A stretch of 37,031 nucleotides of DNA, from positions 43,233 to 80,263 of the forward strand of contig CAYVSA010000002.1 in NCBI GenBank assembly GCA_964454175.1, in the 5' to 3' direction. Under the pieces are notes generated by a model, which searched no databases, was not told where the DNA came from, and saw only the letters and a program-made list of their open reading frames with translations. The DNA is from an uncultured Pseudomonadota bacterium (GTDB taxonomy: Bacteria; BMS3Abin14). Numbering within the stretch: position 1 is the stretch's first letter; each line of letters begins with the position of its first letter. Made by a program: the position numbers and the translations under genes. Shown piece by piece: positions 23,586-32,710 of this stretch.

Positions 23586-24347
23586 ATGAACAGGAAAAAC
23601 ATTCAAGATCTACTGGAAAAAGTAGCGGCCGGGGAAGTTGATCCGAAAGACGCCCTGACCGAACTGCAGGATTTCCCGTCCGCCATGCTGGAGTTTGCCC
23701 AGATAGATACCCATCGGATCCTTCGCCGTGGAGTCCCGGAAACCATTTTCGGGCTGGGAAAAACACCTGACCAGATCGAGCAGATAGTGGGGCGGATGAT
23801 GGATTCCGATTCTCCTGTTCTGGTCACCCGTATCTCCCGGGATGCGGCAGAAAGGATCCTGTCTCACTGGCCGGAGGCTGACTACGATCAATTATCGCGT
23901 ACGGTATCCATAGGCAAACTTCCACCTGCTGGAGGGAAACGAATACTGGTGATGACAGCGGGAACCTCCGATCTTCCGGTGGCGGAGGAGGCTGTCCGAA
24001 CAGCCTCTTTCCTCGGTAGGGAGGTCGGCAAGGCTTATGATGTCGGAGTCGCCGGGATCCACAGGCTCGCCTCCTGCAGAGATGAAATGGCCGGGTCCGG
24101 GGTGATCATCGCTGTGGCCGGGATGGAAGGCGCACTTCCGGGAGTGGTAGCGGGATTGATCCCGGTGCCGGTGATCGGAGTACCCACAAGTGTAGGATAC
24201 GGGACGTCTTTTTCTGGTATAACCCCGCTATTCACAATGCTTTCTTCCTGCGCCTGCGGCCTTACAGTGGTAAATATTGATAACGGCTACGGGGCTGCGA
24301 TGGCTGCGCACTTTATCCTTGGGCTCGATGGTCGACCGGAAGGCTGA
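23586..24347 (+). CDS. larB: Nickel-pincer cofactor biosynthesis carboxylase/hydrolase LarB
   Basis: AGTSDLPVAEEA, DVGVAGIHRL, AGMEGAL, PTSVGYG, VVNIDNG. Confidence 0.95.
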   Translation: MNRKNIQDLLEKVAAGEVDPKDALTELQDFPSAMLEFAQIDTHRILRRGVPETIFGLGKTPDQIEQIVGRMMDSDSPVLVTRISRDAAERILSHWPEADYDQLSRTVSIGKLPPAGGKRILVMTAGTSDLPVAEEAVRTASFLGREVGKAYDVGVAGIHRLASCRDEMAGSGVIIAVAGMEGALPGVVAGLIPVPVIGVPTSVGYGTSFSGITPLFTMLSSCACGLTVVNIDNGYGAAMAAHFILGLDGRPEG

Positions 24348-24363
24348 GGCTTCGGTGACAGAG

Positions 24364-25548
24364 ATGTCTGACAGGATATTATACATAGACCCTTACAGCG
24401 GTGCTTCCGGGGACATGTTCCTCGGTGCGATGCTGTCTGTGGGCGTCCCCCTGGATCTGATAGCCGATGCGGTGAACCGTGTTGTACCTGGAGAGGTCAA
24501 GCTGGAGTCTTCTGAGGTCAAACGCGGGGGGATAGCATGTTCACTATGCAAGGTGACAGTGTCGGACCCGACGGCCAGAAGGACCATGCCGGAGATGAGG
24601 GAACTCTTCGCGGTATCCGGCATGCCCGGAAAGATGAAAGATGATTGCCTCGGTGTCCTCGCCCTGATCGGTGCGGCTGAGGGCAGGGCCCACGGCCAGA
24701 AAGAAGCTGTCCACCTCCATGAATTGGGCGGTCAGGACACAATAGCGGATATTGTGGGAACCATCGCTGCAGTCAGGCACCTTGCTCCGGGCCGAATTGT
24801 CTGCGGCCCTGTAAATCTGGGCCGGGGCTGTGTTGATACCGAACACGGGACACTCCCCGTTCCGGCCCCTGCCACAGCCCTTATCCTTGAAGGTGTTCCG
24901 GTGTTTTCGGCTGGGCCCGAAATGGAGTTGACAACACCCACAGGAGCAGCCCTCATCAGGTACCTGGCCTCGGAATTCGCTGCCCTCCCCGAGCTAAAGC
25001 TTCAGTCCGCAGGGATGGGGGCCGGGGCAGGGGACAGTAAAGAAATGCCGAACGCCCTCAGGGTGTTTCTGGGCACTGGAACAGGAGATCCCCAAAAAGA
25101 GAGCGTGCTGATAGAATGCGGCATTGACGACGTAAGCCCTGAGTATCTGGCACCGTTATTTGAGTCCCTTTACGCCAAAGGCGCCCGGGAGGTCTTCATG
25201 ATACCTGCCCACACGAAAAAGGGGCGGATGGGTGTTCTCCTGCGTGTACTTGTGCCCACCCATCTGGAAGGTGTTCTCACCGACGCTGTTCTGGAGGGAT
25301 CGGGCAGCGCGGGACTGAGGTACTGGCGAGTGGACCGAAGGGTGCTCGACAGGGAAGTAGTAAAGGTAATGACGACTTGCGGGTCGATCAGCGTGAAAAG
25401 GTGGCGCATGCCCTCAGGGAAATGGCGAGCCAAGGTGGAGTTCGAAGATGTGAAGGAACTGGCAGGCAAAAACAACATACGGCCCGAGCGTCTCAGGGAC
25501 GAGGCAATGGCTGTATATCTCATGGAGTTTGAAAATGAACAGGAATAA
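24364..25548 (+). CDS. larC: Nickel insertase LarC
   Basis: [55 protein letters not shown]. Likely start ATG 24364. Confidence 0.92.
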
Positions 25549-26104
25549 GATCGAAAAGGGAATGAGGCTGATCCTCGAAGGCATTGGAGAGGATCCCAAA
25601 AGACCCGGTCTCCTGGAAACACCTCGAAGGGTCGCCGACCTCTACGAGGAGGTCTTCTCGGGTATGGATGACGACCCCATGCAATTTCTTGTGCCGGTGC
25701 TGGGTGAGGCCCATGACGAGATGGTCCTGATAAAAGACCTGCCCCTTCACTCCATGTGCGAGCATCACCTGCTCCCCTTCATAGGTGTTTCACACATAGC
25801 CTACATCCCGGAGGGCGGGACCATAACCGGGCTTTCAAGAATAGCCAGGGTACTTGACAGCTACGCGCGCAGGCCCCAGGTTCAGGAGAGGCTTACTACT
25901 CAGGTCGCCGAAGCGATCATGGATGGATTGTCGCCCAAGGGCGTGATGGTCGTGATAGAGGCCGAGCACCTGTGCATGTCAATGAGGGGTATTAAAAAAC
26001 CCAACGCACAGACGGTAACATCTGCAGTCCGGGGATCCTTCCGGCGGGATGAAAGAACCCGGAGCGAGACACTGTCGCTTATATACGGTCGTCAACGACG
26101 ATAA
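25535..26104 (+). CDS. folE: GTP cyclohydrolase I
   Basis: [36 protein letters not shown] 25535 after GGAG, overlapping the larC end. Confidence 0.97.
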
Positions 26105-26114
26105 TTAAACTGGT

Positions 26115-26170
26115 CCCAGGACCCAGGACCCAGGACCCAGGACCCAGGACCCAGGACCCAGGACCCAGGA
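26115..26170. repeat. Perfect heptamer tandem repeat (CCCAGGA)x8
   Basis: Direct count: 56 bp = 8 units, starting 10 nt after the folE stop. Confidence 0.98.
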
Positions 26171-26657: not shown

Positions 26658-26726
26658 GTGGGCGTCCGCCCTGTGCCAATGAGTGCTCTCTTAACCGCCG
26701 AAGGGTATAAACTACAGGAGGAGAAG

Positions 26727-27377
26727 GTGAGAAAGAGAATAATAACAGTTGTCACTGCTGTACTGGTACTCACGTCCCCCCTTGCTGCAAAGGCCTTTAA
26801 CGTAGGTTCCCCGGGAAAGCCGGTGGCCCCTGGTGGATCGGTCATCTCTGGGTCCATAGGGTTCCTGTCAGTTGATGTGGAAGACGTTGAGGTGGACAGC
26901 AAGTTCTTCCTCTTTAAAGGCTCGTTTGGAGTTTCAGATAGTCTTACCCCGTACTTTAAGGCCGGTTTCGCCGATATATCTGTTGACGCCGCGGGGTTCC
27001 AGGGCAACATGGGATTTTCCTTCGGGGGCGGGTTTCTCCTGGGGCTCATTAGCCCCGGTGAGGAGGGCGGCCTCTCTGTAAATCTCGATTCCCAGGTTCT
27101 CTGGACAGGGAGCAGTGAAGCCGGAGCCGATTACGACCTGTTCCAGGGGCAGCTGGCAGTACTGGGCTCCATGAAATCCGGCGGTACTACTGGCTACGGA
27201 GGGCTCGCAGCATCCTTCCTGACGCTTGACGGCGGCGGGTTGACCCGGGACGAAAGCGCACGGGGCCACATCTTTTTCGGGTTCGATTATTTTATGGACT
27301 ACAACTTCTTTTTCAACCTGGAGGCTCATCTTTTTGGCCAGAGCATGATCTCCGCCGGGGTGGGCTACCTTTTCTAG
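26727..27377 (+). CDS. Outer-membrane beta-barrel protein, function unknown
   Basis: GTG 26727 after AGGAGG. Signal peptide ending AKA, amphipathic strands, C-terminal GVGYLF beta-signal. Confidence 0.8.
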
Positions 27378-27408: not shown

Positions 27409-28053
27409 ATGAAGTTCTTTCTTGACACTGCTAACCTTGACGACATACAGAATGCCACTGAAATGGGGCTCATCGACGGCGTCACTACCAATCCGACCCT
27501 GGTTGCAAGGGAGGGCAAGGAATTTCTCCCCCTGGTCACAAGGATATGCGAGACCGTGGACGGGCCAGTATCCCTGGAGACGGTGAGTACTGACGCAGAG
27601 GGCATGATGAAAGAGGCCAGGGACCTTTCGGCCATCGGCGGGAACGTTGTGGTAAAGATCCCCATGACCCCGGAGGGGCTCAAAGCTGTCAGACTCTGCA
27701 CAAGTGAGGGGATAAGGACGAATGTGACCCTTGTTTTCTCCCCGGTACAGGCTCTTCTGGCGTGCAAGGCCGGCGCGGATTATATAAGTCCCTTCGTGGG
27801 CCGGGTAGACGATATGGGCAGGTCGGGGATGGACCTCGTGGCAGAGATAATAGAGATCAAGGATAATTACGGATTTTCCAGCGAGGTGATCGTGGCCAGT
27901 GTTCGCCACACCGGGCACGTCCTCGAGTCGGCTCTCATGGGGGCAGATATAGCCACAGTGCCCTTCAAGGTGTTGATGCAGCTTTTCAACCACCCGCTGA
28001 CCGATGCAGGGATAGCAAAATTCCTGGCCGATTGGGAAAAAGTACCCAAATAG
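27409..28053 (+). CDS. tal: Short-type transaldolase (TalC/FSA family)
   Basis: FLDTA, GVTTNP, VVKIP, NVTLVFS. Glu in SLE and Phe in SPFVGR are the residues of transaldolases rather than true FSA. Confidence 0.92.
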
Positions 28054-28066
28054 GGAGAGGGCTGAA

Positions 28067-29014
28067 ATGGGAACCCTGTTGATCATTGACGATTCAGCGG
28101 CCAGCCGAAGCCAGATCATCGAGCAGATGGAGGGCACTGAAGAGTTCGTCCGCTTCCTGGAGGCCGAGGACGGCGCCCAGGGGCTCAAGACCCTCACGGA
28201 GATCGGAACCGGTGTGGATGTGGTCGTGTGCGATATCAACATGCCGGTGATGGACGGCTACAATTTTCTGAGGATGGCCAAAGCCAAAGAGAATCTGAAG
28301 CACATTCCTGTCGTCATGATTACGGCCGAAGCCGACGTTGCCGAAGTGGTCAGGGCTTTCGACATTGGGGCCAGCGATTACATTACAAAGCCTTTCAACC
28401 CCCTCATCCTGAAGGCCCGCCTGAGCAACATGCTCAGGATAAAAGAACTGCAGGACCAGTTGACCATGCAAAAAGATCTGATGGAGGTTATGGCCACTAC
28501 CGACCCTCTCACCCGGATACCCAATATCAGGTACTTTGCAAAGTGGCTGGACACGGAGTTGGCAAGATCCATGAGGTACGGGAACGATCTTGCCCTGATC
28601 ATGCTGGACATCGATCACTTCAAGAAGATCAACGACACGTACGGGCATCCCCAGGGCGACACGGTGTTAAGAGAAATGGCCGATGTGTTCAAAGATGACC
28701 TTCGCAAGATCGACGTTGTGGCAAGGTACGGCGGCGAGGAGTTTATAATAGCCCTGCCGCAGACGGACTGTGTCGGCGCCCTGATCGTAGCCCAGCGTTT
28801 GAGAGAGAAGGTGGAAAAACACCAGTTCAAGGGATTTACCAACCCGGTTACGATCACCATAAGCCTTGGCCTGTGCTGTCTGGTGGATAGTGATGTGCCA
28901 GAGCCGAAAAATATGATCGATGAGGCCGACCAGGCCCTCTACCGGGCCAAACGTGCCGGCAGGAACCGAGTTGAGATTGCAGGTAACTGCAAGAGGGCAG
29001 CAAAAACAGGCTAG
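28067..29014 (+). CDS. Response regulator diguanylate cyclase (REC-GGDEF, WspR-like)
   Basis: Intact REC; DIDHFKKINDTYGH; I-site RKID; RYGGEEF. Confidence 0.95.
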   Translation: MGTLLIIDDSAASRSQIIEQMEGTEEFVRFLEAEDGAQGLKTLTEIGTGVDVVVCDINMPVMDGYNFLRMAKAKENLKHIPVVMITAEADVAEVVRAFDIGASDYITKPFNPLILKARLSNMLRIKELQDQLTMQKDLMEVMATTDPLTRIPNIRYFAKWLDTELARSMRYGNDLALIMLDIDHFKKINDTYGHPQGDTVLREMADVFKDDLRKIDVVARYGGEEFIIALPQTDCVGALIVAQRLREKVEKHQFKGFTNPVTITISLGLCCLVDSDVPEPKNMIDEADQALYRAKRAGRNRVEIAGNCKRAAKTG

Positions 29015-29066
29015 GTCACCATTCTCTGACGGGAATTTCCTGCAAAGAGAAAAGGAGCGCTTCGTA

Positions 29067-29468
29067 TTGAATGTTCCCAAGGACTGTCTGTATTCCAGGG
29101 ACCACTTCTGGTCAAAGCCGGAAGGCAACGAGGCTGTCGTGGGGATCACCCAATGGGCACAGGGCGACCTCGGAGAATTCGTGTTCGTCGAACTGCCTGA
29201 GGTGGAAAGCGAAGTTGAAGCCTCGTCGGCCTGCGGTATCCTGGAATCTTCCAGGGCTGTTTTTGATATTATGGCTCCTCTTTCCGGGGAGGTGCTGGAT
29301 TTCAATCCGGACCTGAAGGAGAGCCCTGAACTGGTGAATGAGGATCCATACGGGGACGGCTGGCTGTTTCGTATTACCGTTGCAGATCTCGATCAGCTTT
29401 CCACACTGATGACGCCTGAAGAGTACGGAGATTATATAACTGATCTCGACACCGAGGAGGACAGGTGA
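29067..29468 (+). CDS. GcvH-like protein with Arg in place of the lipoyl-lysine
   Basis: TTG 29067 after AAGGAG. YS.DH.W, VGIT.WAQ..LG..VFVELP, ESSRA (canonical ESVKA), APLSGEV, PELVNEDPYGDGW. Confidence 0.9.
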   Translation: MNVPKDCLYSRDHFWSKPEGNEAVVGITQWAQGDLGEFVFVELPEVESEVEASSACGILESSRAVFDIMAPLSGEVLDFNPDLKESPELVNEDPYGDGWLFRITVADLDQLSTLMTPEEYGDYITDLDTEEDR

Positions 29469-31315
29469 GGCACGCTGGGACTATTACCAACCCTGGAGGA
29501 AATTCTTTACTTTCTGAAGACGGCACCGGCACCATTGTCCGAATGGTCAATGATCGGTCCGAACGCTTCGGCGACAGGGTCGTTTTCGAGCGAAAACGAG
29601 AAGGTGCCTGGGAGACGTTCTCGTGGAAGGATCTCTGCAGATTTTACAGGGAAGTCGCCAGGGGTCTGCTCAACCTGGGGATCGAGGAGGGGGACAAGGT
29701 TGCCATCCTGTCCGAGAATAGACCCGAGTGGGCTTTCGTGGATATCGGGGTCCTCTCCATGCAGGGAGTGGTGGTTCCCCTCTACTGGACCCTGACGCCG
29801 GCCCAACTGGAGTACATTCTGAGGGATTGTAAAGCAAGGGTGATCTTCGTCTCCAACACGGAGTATCTCGACAAAATACTCAAGATAAAATCCTCTTTGC
29901 CTGACCTGGAGACGATAGTGTGTTTCGATGCCTTTCCCGTTGACAGGCAGGTGGATGGTCTCCTGTCCTTCGACGACCTCCTGGAGACAGGCGCAAAGGC
30001 TGCACCGGAAATCTGGGAGGAGCTGGGAAGAAGGATAGCCTCTGGGAACGAAGGGGATCTTGCGACGATAATCTATACTTCCGGAACGACGGGGGAGCCC
30101 AAGGGTGTAATGCTCACCCATAGGAATTTCCTCTCCAACGTCAGGTCCGTCCTCGAGGTAATCGATGTCAAGAGCTCCGATACGTGTCTTTCCTTTTTGC
30201 CCCTCTCCCATGTTTTTGAGAGAGTAGCCTACTACCTGTTCCTCTACGTTGGAGGCAGGATCATCTACGCAGAGAGCATCGACAAGATAGTTGACAATAT
30301 GCAGGAGGTGAGCCCGACTATTCTTGTGAGTGTTCCAAGGATCTACGAAAAGGCCTACGCTAAAGTTCTGGACAAGGTCCACGATGCTTCGCCTCTTCGC
30401 AAAGCCATATTCAGCTTCTGCGTGGGGATCGGGCGCGAGGTGAGCGGCAAGCTTCTGGCCGGGCAGGAGATCGGCGGGCTGCTTGCCTTCAAGATGAAGT
30501 TAGCCGAAAAACTGGTCTTCGGCAAGATCAGGGAGACCTTTGGCGGGAAAATAAGGCTTATGATCTCGGGAGGAGCGGCCCTTTCCCGCGAGATCGCCGA
30601 GTTCTTCCACGCGGCCGGGCTGGTTATCCTGGAGGGGTACGGACTGACCGAGACCTCTCCCGTGATAGCGGCAAACCATGATGGCAGCATACGTTTCGGC
30701 TCTGTGGGCCAGGTCCTTCCGGGTGTTGAGGTCCGGATCGAGGGGGACGGCGAGATCTCCACCAGGGGGCCCAACGTGATGCAGGGCTACTTCAACAGGC
30801 CCGAAGAAACTGCAGAGGTGCTGGATGCGGACGGCTGGTTCCACACTGGAGATATAGGGCACTTTGACTCCGAGGGTTTCCTCTGGATAACAGACAGGAA
30901 AAAGGCGATCATCGTAACGGCCGGGGGCAAGAACGTGGCTCCGCAGGCCCTGGAAAACTCCCTGTCCACGGACAAGTTTATCTCCCAGGCCTTCGTTTAC
31001 GGAGACGGGAGGAAGTTCATATCGGCCCTCATTGTTCCCGACTGGGAGAGGACGAAAAGCTACGCCGCGGAAAAAAATATCGAGTATTCTTCAACCGCCG
31101 AACTCTGCAGTAATATGGTTATCATGGAGCTTTTTGAAAAGAGGGTGGAGCTTGCCCTGGTCGATTTTTCACGGGCTGAAAAGGTGAGGAAATTCAAGCT
31201 CATGGAGCGGGAGTTCAGCCAGGATGAGGGAGAGGTAACACCTACCCTCAAACTCAAACGCAAGGAAATAACCCAGCGGTACTGGAACGACCTCGAATCC
31301 CTTTACAAAGACTGA
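29465..31315 (+). CDS. Long-chain fatty acid--CoA ligase (AMP-binding)
   Basis: YTSGTTGEPKG, LPLSH, EGYGLTET, WFHTGDIG, GGKNVAP, TPTLKLKR. Confidence 0.95.
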   Translation: MRHAGTITNPGGNSLLSEDGTGTIVRMVNDRSERFGDRVVFERKREGAWETFSWKDLCRFYREVARGLLNLGIEEGDKVAILSENRPEWAFVDIGVLSMQGVVVPLYWTLTPAQLEYILRDCKARVIFVSNTEYLDKILKIKSSLPDLETIVCFDAFPVDRQVDGLLSFDDLLETGAKAAPEIWEELGRRIASGNEGDLATIIYTSGTTGEPKGVMLTHRNFLSNVRSVLEVIDVKSSDTCLSFLPLSHVFERVAYYLFLYVGGRIIYAESIDKIVDNMQEVSPTILVSVPRIYEKAYAKVLDKVHDASPLRKAIFSFCVGIGREVSGKLLAGQEIGGLLAFKMKLAEKLVFGKIRETFGGKIRLMISGGAALSREIAEFFHAAGLVILEGYGLTETSPVIAANHDGSIRFGSVGQVLPGVEVRIEGDGEISTRGPNVMQGYFNRPEETAEVLDADGWFHTGDIGHFDSEGFLWITDRKKAIIVTAGGKNVAPQALENSLSTDKFISQAFVYGDGRKFISALIVPDWERTKSYAAEKNIEYSSTAELCSNMVIMELFEKRVELALVDFSRAEKVRKFKLMEREFSQDEGEVTPTLKLKRKEITQRYWNDLESLYKD

Positions 31316-31348: not shown

Positions 31349-31395
31349 AAATGGCTTGAGGGGCAGAGAGCTGCCCCATCAAGCCATTTGTTGTT
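31349..31395 (+). terminator. Long hairpin between the acyl-CoA ligase and fadL genes, probable terminator
   Basis: AAATGGCTTGA GGGGCAG-AGAG-CTGCCCC A TCAAGCCATTT: 18 bp with one bulge, followed by GTTGTT. Confidence 0.65.
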
Positions 31396-31468
31396 AGGGT
31401 GGGGACGCAATAGCTTATTTGTGGGATTTATTCATTCTGAAATGTTGGGGTATGGGAAAGGAGAAAAA

Positions 31469-32710
31469 ATGAAAGGGTGTTTTAGAATTGTGTTTATTGC
31501 TTCCCTCGTTACTGTAATGGCGGCGGGGACGGCGATGGCGGGCTCATTCAGGATCCCCGAGTCAGGCGCTGCTGCCATGGCCCAGGGTAACGCCTTCGTG
31601 GGCCAGGCCGATGACCCATCGGCGGTTCACCACAACGTGGCGGGCATTACCGGCCTTGAGGGAAACCAGTTCATGGCTGGGTTGACGGTCATAACTCCGG
31701 AGAGCGAGTTTAAAAGTGTTGGCATGAAGGATCAGACCTTCTATCCGCCGTACCTGTTCTACACGAACCACCTGGGTGACGGCGACTGGTGGCTGGGTTT
31801 CGGGGTCAACTCTCCTTTCGGGCTCGGTACGGATTGGGATAATACAGCACCTTTTAATGTTACGTTTATCGGTGCTTTTGGGATTCCGGTTACGACGAAG
31901 ACTGAGCTTGAGATCGCCAAGATCGCTCCAGTACTCGCCTACAAGGTTAATGATAAATTTTCCATCGGCTTCGGCCCGGAGTATTACAATGTCCTGAGTG
32001 TGGAATATAACGGCGGAGGGCTTCCCCTGGGAGTGCCCACGCCTTTCTCACTTAAGGGTGATGGTGACGGTTACGGCTTTACAGTTGGGGGCCTTTATCA
32101 GGCCAGTGATGTGCTGAGGATCGGGCTTTCCTACCACAGCGGTGTTACAGCCAAGCTTTCGGGAGATGCGGTGAGCTTGCCGGGTAATACAACTGCAGAT
32201 GCTGCATACACAGGGAGAGCCAAGCTCGACCTGAATATTCCCGATACCTACGCCATCGGCATTAACTACCTCGCCAGCGATCAATTCTCCATCAACGTGG
32301 ATCTTGATTTTACACAGTGGTCTGATTACGACAAGCTGGTATTCAAGACCGCGGCCGGGGTTGAACAACTCACCGTAGACAAGAATTATGATAACGTCAT
32401 GGCCTGGAGGCTTGGCGGAAGTTATTACGTTGATGATAATTGGACGATCAGGTTCGGTTATCTGGCAGAGCCCACGCCGGTAATTGAGAGTACATTTGAT
32501 CCAAGACTCCCGGATGCCGATGCAACAGCGATATCGGTTGGAGGGGGTTACGATGCCGGTTCATGGGCCATTAACGGGGCCTACATGGCTCTTACGAAAG
32601 ATGACCGGACTGTTGACAGCGATGTTCCATCAACACTACCGACTCTTTATGACGGTGCCTATAAAACCACGATCAGCCTGCTGAGCGCGGATATAACGTT
32701 CAGATTCTGA
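31469..32710 (+). CDS. OmpP1/FadL-family outer-membrane transporter
   Basis: ATG 31469 after AAGGAG. Signal peptide ending AMA, GNAFVGQADDPSAVHHN.AG, PFGLGTDW, LPDAD, terminal Phe. Confidence 0.93.
   Translation: MKGCFRIVFIASLVTVMAAGTAMAGSFRIPESGAAAMAQGNAFVGQADDPSAVHHNVAGITGLEGNQFMAGLTVITPESEFKSVGMKDQTFYPPYLFYTNHLGDGDWWLGFGVNSPFGLGTDWDNTAPFNVTFIGAFGIPVTTKTELEIAKIAPVLAYKVNDKFSIGFGPEYYNVLSVEYNGGGLPLGVPTPFSLKGDGDGYGFTVGGLYQASDVLRIGLSYHSGVTAKLSGDAVSLPGNTTADAAYTGRAKLDLNIPDTYAIGINYLASDQFSINVDLDFTQWSDYDKLVFKTAAGVEQLTVDKNYDNVMAWRLGGSYYVDDNWTIRFGYLAEPTPVIESTFDPRLPDADATAISVGGGYDAGSWAINGAYMALTKDDRTVDSDVPSTLPTLYDGAYKTTISLLSADITFRF

Follow-up and report, generated by a model that had tools for sequence, protein, structure and literature searches.

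In canonical H-proteins of glycine cleavage (GcvH) the lysine that carries lipoate is invariant, and the protein needs that Lys together with the P and T proteins of its pathway. The fold has also found employment elsewhere. GcvH-L of S. pyogenes and S. aureus (PDB 5A35) has it outside glycine cleavage, bears its lipoate on a conserved Lys, and is encoded beside LplA2, SirTM and macrodomain genes. LbpA, of sHdr sulfur oxidation, is likewise a GcvH homologue in a non-glycine pathway. Two curated families also gather GcvH homologues that are not true GcvH: NF045810 (GcvH_rel_desulf, ‘GcvH-related protein’) and TIGR03077 (not_gcvH, ‘glycine cleavage protein H-like protein’), the latter a chlamydial family from genomes without P and T proteins. 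PMC12440151 calls GcvH-L a carrier protein for lipoic acid, and PMC6067878 and PMC10332631 give all 95 LbpA a strictly conserved Lys, mostly two conserved Cys and a ligase of their own, sLpl(AB). What, then, of an H-protein homologue in which the Lys itself is gone? Such a protein is encoded at positions 29067..29468 (+ strand) of a 37,031-nucleotide (nt) stretch of DNA, here called the window, from an uncultured Pseudomonadota bacterium (GTDB lineage Bacteria; BMS3Abin14; assembly GCA_964454175.1, contig CAYVSA010000002.1, positions 43,233 to 80,263 of the forward strand). It is, with high confidence, a non-lipoylated protein of the GcvH fold with a maintained function, and the gene that follows it encodes a FadD-like fatty-acid-activating enzyme.

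The gene starts with TTG, encodes 133 amino acids (aa) and ends with TGA at 29466-29468. A Shine-Dalgarno sequence, AAGGAG (29052..29057, + strand), lies 9 nt before the TTG, and in the clade alignment the start position is the same as that of orthologues. Residues 8-125 match positions 2-120 of the 122 in the Pfam profile GCV_H (PF01597) with an E value of 1.5e-35 and 122.2 bits (cut-off 22.2), and the NCBIfam cut-offs for GcvH are exceeded too (NF002270, 142.7 versus 117; TIGR00527, 128.8 versus 115.85). The AlphaFold2 model (mean pLDDT 84.1, pTM 0.77) superimposes on 1ONL with TM-scores of 0.88/0.92 and a root-mean-square deviation of 1.4 Å; for solved H-proteins in general, to which the sequence is 43-44% identical, the TM-scores are 0.86-0.92. 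Compared with canonical GcvH (T. thermophilus 1ONL and E. coli 3AB9), fold and length are the same and H13, W15, E60, S61, D67 and NEDPYG.GW are kept, whereas the invariant Lys, Glu-14, Val-62 and Tyr-70 have given way to a variable site, a hydrophobic residue 14, a polar residue 62 and a lost Tyr, with an acidic tail besides. Residues 60-64 read ESSRA. Codon 63, at 29253-29255 (+ strand), is AGG (Arg) at the lipoyl-lysine position and differs by one base from AAG; codon 62 is TCC (Ser), where canonical H-proteins have Val. A preliminary description of the window had reported the GcvH fold, the ESSRA motif, the AGG codon and the Val-to-Ser change, and was right to the base. At 29239-29256, within the gene, there is a hairpin, TCCTGGA-ATCT-TCCAGGG, with codon 63 in its 3' arm and a T-run after it; the hairpin is probably a chance occurrence, since terminator-like elements in the region number 6 versus 5.4 in shuffles, and a promoter and terminator scan of the region gave nothing above shuffles.

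Is the missing Lys anything more than one wrong base? The homologues compared were the best 120 of 6860, the first 66 of which make up, with the window protein, a clade of 67, the remaining 54 being canonical. The 66 are 51-99% identical to the window protein and range in length from 131 to 152 aa, with all except one at 131-133, and in a tree of 133 homologues the 67 form one side of a branch with an SH-aLRT of 99. Lys is present in 54/54 canonical homologues and missing from 51/67 clade members, the column across the clade holding 12 residue types (R23 K16 E6 D4 G4 L4 V3 A2 N2 H1 M1 I1; n=67). With an entropy of 2.84 bits, site 63 ranks second in variability among the 133 clade columns, while it is invariant in the canonical set, and a tree of the 67 clade members with 6 canonical outgroups requires at least 18 changes there. 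Position 62, just ahead of it, is occupied by Val in 51/54 canonical homologues and by D, T, E, N, S or K in the clade. The phylum was sampled through 16 genomes, of one family and nine genera, and even here the site residues are R in six, K in four, L in two and A, D, G and T in one each, with variation inside three genera (K/D, A/G, R/L). The thought that Arg itself might be a conserved functional residue was rejected on this variability, and the check that the preliminary description had proposed, whether Arg is conserved as a clade, came out negative (23 of 67).

That this should be a normal GcvH in which a sequencing error or a recent private Lys-to-Arg mutation has occurred might be argued from the single base that separates AGG from AAG, from the NCBIfam scores above the GcvH cut-offs and from the public DNA run (one listed), whose contigs cover 28590-28648, 29697-29921 and 30133-30381 only, outside the gene, and so do not reach codon 63. 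Its chance of being right is nevertheless close to nil: another sequence, which matches the window protein at 132/133 positions, likewise has ESSRA, 51 of the 67 clade members are without Lys, Glu-14 and Val-62 are changed too, and P or T protein, lipoate ligase and lipoate synthase were not found in the genome. To judge from the aligned sequences, the loss of Lys is a genuine clade-wide divergence, neither an error nor a private mutation, as the preliminary description had itself preferred to think. It had added that Lys in close orthologues would speak for an error or a recent private mutation; besides the near-identical sequence with Arg, the closest distinct relative, at 83% identity, has ESSDT. 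Because of the clade-wide pattern of non-Lys residues a read-level check of codon 63 is unnecessary.

The site of attachment is not all that has changed. Positions 12-14 of the window protein (D-H-F) align with Glu-12, His-13 and Glu-14 of the E. coli H-protein. PMC7733448 ascribes to Glu-12 and Glu-14 the hydrogen bonds that hold the loaded lipoyl arm by its aminomethyl nitrogen, and to Ser-67, Asp-68 and Tyr-70 control over the release of that arm. Codon 14 (29106..29108, + strand) is TTC, giving Phe where the arm-anchoring Glu-14 sits in canonical proteins, both in the clade alignment and in that with the E. coli and T. thermophilus H-proteins, so of the acidic pair Glu-12/Glu-14 that marks GcvH there is an Asp at 12 and a Phe at 14. 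The replacement is general: position 14 is F61 L5 I1 in the clade (67/67) versus E50 D4 in canonical homologues (54/54), and all 16 of the clade members that do bear Lys also have Phe-14. The Tyr-70 equivalent is replaced by Thr, Met or Ile; Asp-12, His-13, Ser-66 and Asp-67 are retained in the clade, Ser-66 being Phe in the window protein. Differences from canonical proteins that are fixed in the clade include Pro18 (canonical Val, Ile or Leu), Asp42 (canonical Glu) and Gln110 (canonical Glu), and further fixed features are Thr-Pro at 116-117, Asp-Leu at 126-127 and the acidic C-terminal tail. The features for carrying and sheltering lipoate are, on this residue pattern, lost, and the scaffold and a new residue set are maintained.

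Could the protein still be a covalent carrier, with another residue or group loaded by the adenylate-forming enzyme encoded next door, for instance an acyl thioester on Cys7? Position 7 is indeed clade-specific, being Cys in 60/67 clade members versus Leu in 45/54 canonical homologues. It is, however, Arg or Tyr in the other 7/67, and none of the remaining nucleophiles combines invariance with restriction to the clade, E60, S61 and D67 being present in canonical H-proteins too; the enzyme next door, moreover, has ordinary acyl-CoA ligase domains and no signs of carrier loading. A covalent carrier of this kind is thus very improbable, and the different carrier chemistry that the preliminary description had suggested gains no support, no alternative attachment residue being invariant.

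The genomes tell a matching story. The window genome, G000 (2.17 Mb, 98.5% complete), and every other genome of the phylum sample has exactly one GcvH homologue, always of this clade (16/16, E <= 1e-10). Profile searches of the same genomes, G000 included, gave GCV_T in 0/16, GDC-P in 0/16 and the 2-oxoacid dehydrogenase E2 core in 0/16, and lipA above cut-off in 0/16, with three weak radical-SAM matches. BPL_LplA_LipB was matched in 13/16 genomes, once in each, with an additional short 29-bit fragment in G009; a match is lacking from three genomes, whose completeness is 78-81%. In 5/5 tested the matched gene is that for BirA (TIGR00121, 159-174 bits versus a cut-off of 83); in G000 it adjoins a type III pantothenate kinase-like gene, identified by eye from the translation. 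Two weak GCV_H matches elsewhere in G000 were rejected as GcvH, being biotinyl domains of carboxylases with an AMKM motif. The preliminary description had noted that no gcvT, gcvP, lipA or lplA is nearby, which can be extended to the whole genome and to all 16 genomes of the phylum. Since no lipoate enzymes were found in the lineage, there is nothing that could lipoylate the GcvH-like protein or use it as a lipoyl carrier. For the same reason a role as decoy for a lipoate ligase, one of the possibilities raised at the outset, was rejected: no such ligase is present and there is nothing lipoate-related to decoy. Nor is the protein a paralogue, as had been supposed, with a canonical gcvH to be sought elsewhere in the genome; none was found there, and because it is the only GcvH homologue in each phylum genome it is the lineage's sole gcvH descendant.

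Immediately 3' of this descendant is a gene for a FadD-like long-chain acyl-CoA synthetase (29465..31315, + strand; 616 aa, GTG start), with an AMP-binding domain at E 5.3e-83 and an AMP-binding_C_3 domain; its best NCBIfam match is FadD11 / long-chain-fatty-acid--CoA ligase, below the cut-offs. Its GTG overlaps the stop of the GcvH-like gene by 4 nt and its ribosome-binding site, GAGGAGG (29454..29460, + strand), lies inside the last GcvH-like codons, as a GGAGG-type sequence does within C-terminal Glu/Asp codons at 16/16 orthologous junctions. This coupling, which the preliminary description had passed over, is the strongest functional lead. Next comes a gene for a FadL/TodX outer-membrane fatty-acid channel (31388..32710, + strand; Toluene_X, E 7e-55).

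An arrangement of this sort invites a deflating explanation, that a functionless gcvH relic has been kept as a leader open reading frame, its translation delivering ribosomes to a fadD whose ribosome-binding site sits in the relic's 3' end. The overlapping frames and the disappearance of all the original biochemical partners would suit it. The selection on the gene does not. Nei-Gojobori omega is 0.09-0.21 in the ten pairs with estimable synonymous divergence; in six within-genus pairs it is 0.10-0.19 for the GcvH-like gene, 0.09-0.16 for fadD and 0.07-0.12 for tal, the transaldolase gene upstream (one tal pair 0.34), values for fadL being unreliable with partial fragments. The GcvH-like gene is thus under purifying selection comparable to that on neighbouring housekeeping genes, and it extends over the full length (0.10-0.21) as in fadD and tal. 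In a 34-sequence clade sample 26 positions are invariant and 20 more at least 90% conserved; these run along the fold and are joined by the residues fixed in the clade. The frame is intact, with no stops, in 16/16 phylum genomes, and a leader would have no need of a conserved fold of 131-133 aa. The leader explanation is accordingly improbable. The expectation in the preliminary description of a non-lipoylated H-protein homologue with another role has thus held up well, Lys and Glu-14 being lost, selection kept and lipoate partners lacking. Selection persisting after all lipoate partners vanished means that the H-protein fold must have a cofactor-independent use and, as the gene is kept under selection and fixed before fadD in genomes where no lipoate enzymes were found, the protein probably has a new, cofactor-free job.

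What might the job be? Tentatively, and short of calling it probable, the function may be tied to a FadD/FadL module for fatty-acid uptake and activation. Synteny is the one line of evidence that links the protein to FadD. The fadD gene is next downstream in 18/18 clade loci, namely the 16 phylum genomes, L004 and the metagenome locus L122; L004, a chromosome of a metagenome-assembled genome (MAG; 2.78 Mb) with the order tal-gcvHL-fadD-fadL, has the same coordinates as G003 and is probably the same genome. The gap from stop to start is -4 to +5 nt in 14/16 genome loci. The fadL gene lies 3' of fadD in 11/16 phylum loci, and the other 5 have no fadL match in the sequence at hand. Near canonical gcvH, fadD or fadL was found at 0/79 genome loci (within 5 kb) and at 0/79 metagenome loci (within 3.5 kb). 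These 158 canonical controls are a by-product of contig scans with the clade alignment, which were dominated by the general NEDPYG pattern and yielded one clade member each (L004 and L122).

The upstream side is far less constant. In the window it holds a response regulator-GGDEF gene (28067..29014, + strand) and, before that, a transaldolase/FSA gene, tal (27409..28053, + strand), both assigned by Pfam. The former is a variable neighbour outside the conserved core, full length in 9/16 genomes, a 65-aa remnant in G007 and absent from 6, and tal is the usual upstream neighbour (12/16 loci). The arrangements are tal with full GGDEF in 7 genomes, full GGDEF in 2 whose contig stops short of tal, tal with the remnant in one and tal alone in four; for the remainder, G011 has a divergent Glu/Gln-tRNA synthetase gene and G015 a LarC-FolE-MTHFR-YHS block. 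With the upstream side differing among genomes and the pair intact, the GcvH-like gene and fadD have outlived at least three upstream rearrangements. An association with the GGDEF regulator was rejected, as that gene is in only 9-10/16 genomes.

Several observations weigh against a role with FadD. The genes are separated by a spacer of ~300 nt in G015 and of ~120 nt in L122. G008 has an intact GcvH-like gene with a fadD frame of just 300 aa; in G012, a 71%-complete MAG, the fadD frame is split in two, and these short or split frames could be assembly error or real decay. All 16 syntenic genomes belong to one family-level lineage, so that their synteny is not phylogenetically independent. In other phyla, a GcvH-like open reading frame was found within 1.5 kb at 0/33 loci of FadD orthologues (34-50% identity; 29 from the phylum of G020 and 4 from G016, G017 and G020, with a single locus of an unpublished genome set aside), and among 43 longer GcvH homologues there was no fusion to AMP-binding (PF00501; 0/43), the fusions seen being with GcvT, GcvP and others. 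The same three points, the single family, FadD orthologues that do without such a partner and the missing fusion, speak for a different account, in which a lipoate-free and selected GcvH-fold protein, perhaps a protein-protein adaptor or a regulator of another process, has nothing to do with FadD and its adjacency is an inherited family operon. Loss of Lys and purifying selection fit that account equally. Persistence of the pair through at least three upstream rearrangements, start and stop that overlap or are at most 5 nt apart in 14/16 genome loci, and the lack of any other constant neighbour speak against it, and we regard it as unlikely, if a serious contender. Predictions of a complex of FadD with the GcvH-like protein scored 0.00 in two runs, controls not being folded, and say nothing for or against a pairing. 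The genome has a second acyl-CoA synthetase, 32% identical to the fadD product, whose gene is not beside the GcvH-like gene (sole copy on contig C2).

The scheme that we tentatively favour, of an accessory to the FadD/FadL module, would run as follows. The lineage's gcvH would have been retained after loss of glycine cleavage, of the 2-oxoacid dehydrogenases and of the enzymes for lipoate synthesis and attachment, leaving a cytoplasmic protein that keeps the full H-protein fold and would no longer carry lipoate. Its lipoyl-lysine would have become a free-running site, the acidic residue that held the aminomethyl-lipoyl arm a large hydrophobic one, and a new residue set with an acidic C-terminal tail would have become fixed. 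The protein would be made from one message with the FadD-like synthetase, by translational coupling and with FadL after (co-transcription being presumed from the gene arrangement), and would act as a cofactor-free accessory of fatty-acid uptake and activation, via protein contacts or via an acyl chain held in the re-lined arm cleft. The physical or functional link to FadD, any ligand and co-transcription are inferred; which mechanism, a protein-protein adaptor or an acyl-chain holder in a more hydrophobic arm cleft, is speculation. In its most explicit form a non-covalent holder might bind fatty acid, acyl-AMP or acyl-CoA in the former lipoyl-arm cleft and exchange it with the co-translated synthetase. 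The cleft would be a re-lined one, with the lysine gone, Glu-14 turned to Phe and Tyr-70 lost, though we think this version rather improbable. Fatty-acid uptake for degradation is plausible in this organism, as its genome also encodes acyl-CoA dehydrogenases, a thiolase and a FabF-type ketoacyl synthase.

A link to FadD, if true, would mean that fatty-acid uptake in bacteria has a component hitherto unknown. The acyl-chain holder, if true, would be a fatty-acid chaperone of a new bacterial type, and no accessory subunit of a FadD-type enzyme would have been described before it; we know of no family of accessory subunits for long-chain acyl-CoA synthetase. Irrespective of either, a cofactor-less ‘pseudo-H-protein’ is fixed in a phylum without detected lipoate enzymes and joined to a fatty-acid-activating gene. 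There is a practical side too. Since the protein passes the NCBI equivalog cut-off it would be automatically annotated as GcvH, a false hint of glycine cleavage or lipoate metabolism in the phylum.

How does it compare with the relatives introduced above? Canonical GcvH has its Lys and its P and T proteins; here no P or T protein or lipoylation enzyme was found, and linkage to fadD-fadL stands in place of that to gcvT/gcvP. The match to GcvH-L is recognizable by Foldseek (E 1.7e-7) with an identity of only 19%, and unlike GcvH-L the window protein has no Lys and no ligase, its neighbours being the GGDEF regulator, tal, fadD and fadL. LbpA has its Lys, whereas the window protein is without it and the genome without an LplA-type gene. 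The score is 62.7 bits against the 144.05 cut-off of TIGR03077 and 53.3 against the 150 of NF045810. Searches of the literature collection, outside which much literature lies, turned up no account of GcvH homologues without the Lys and none of a gcvH-fadD pairing. An ESM Atlas search gave ordinary GcvH clusters only, and a profile search of the representative library found the clade only as the fragments P0158 and P0245. The GcvH-like protein works unlike any described GcvH relative.

Other GcvH homologues have lost the Lys as well. Among 149 representatives nearest the clade profile 13 are lysine-less; nine lysine-less representatives were placed in the tree, none inside the 67-member clade. 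Those scanned still pass an NCBIfam GcvH cut-off and would be annotated as GcvH. Lysine-less members of other lineages, with R, E, T, N or S, are P0129, P0143, P0154, P0157, P0185, P0198, P0229, P0255, P0261 and P0246. P0122, of 1391 aa, combines three GcvH domains with a GlcD-like FAD (flavin adenine dinucleotide) oxidase and an HdrD/CCG-type iron-sulfur module.

Further upstream in the window are LarB-like (AIRC domain) and LarC (Ni_insertion) genes for nickel-pincer cofactor synthesis (23586-25548), in overlapping frames, and in G015 the same LarC-FolE block stands upstream of the GcvH-like gene. Following a small YHS-domain gene there is, at 26658-27377 of the window and at L121:1786-2430 in G015, a gene for a protein of 215-239 aa that matches nothing in Pfam, and in G015 the GcvH-like gene comes immediately after it; the two proteins are taken as homologous from position and size. 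In the spacer right after the GTP cyclohydrolase I gene (25529-26104) of the window is a perfect tandem repeat, (CCCAGGA) x 8, at 26115-26170.

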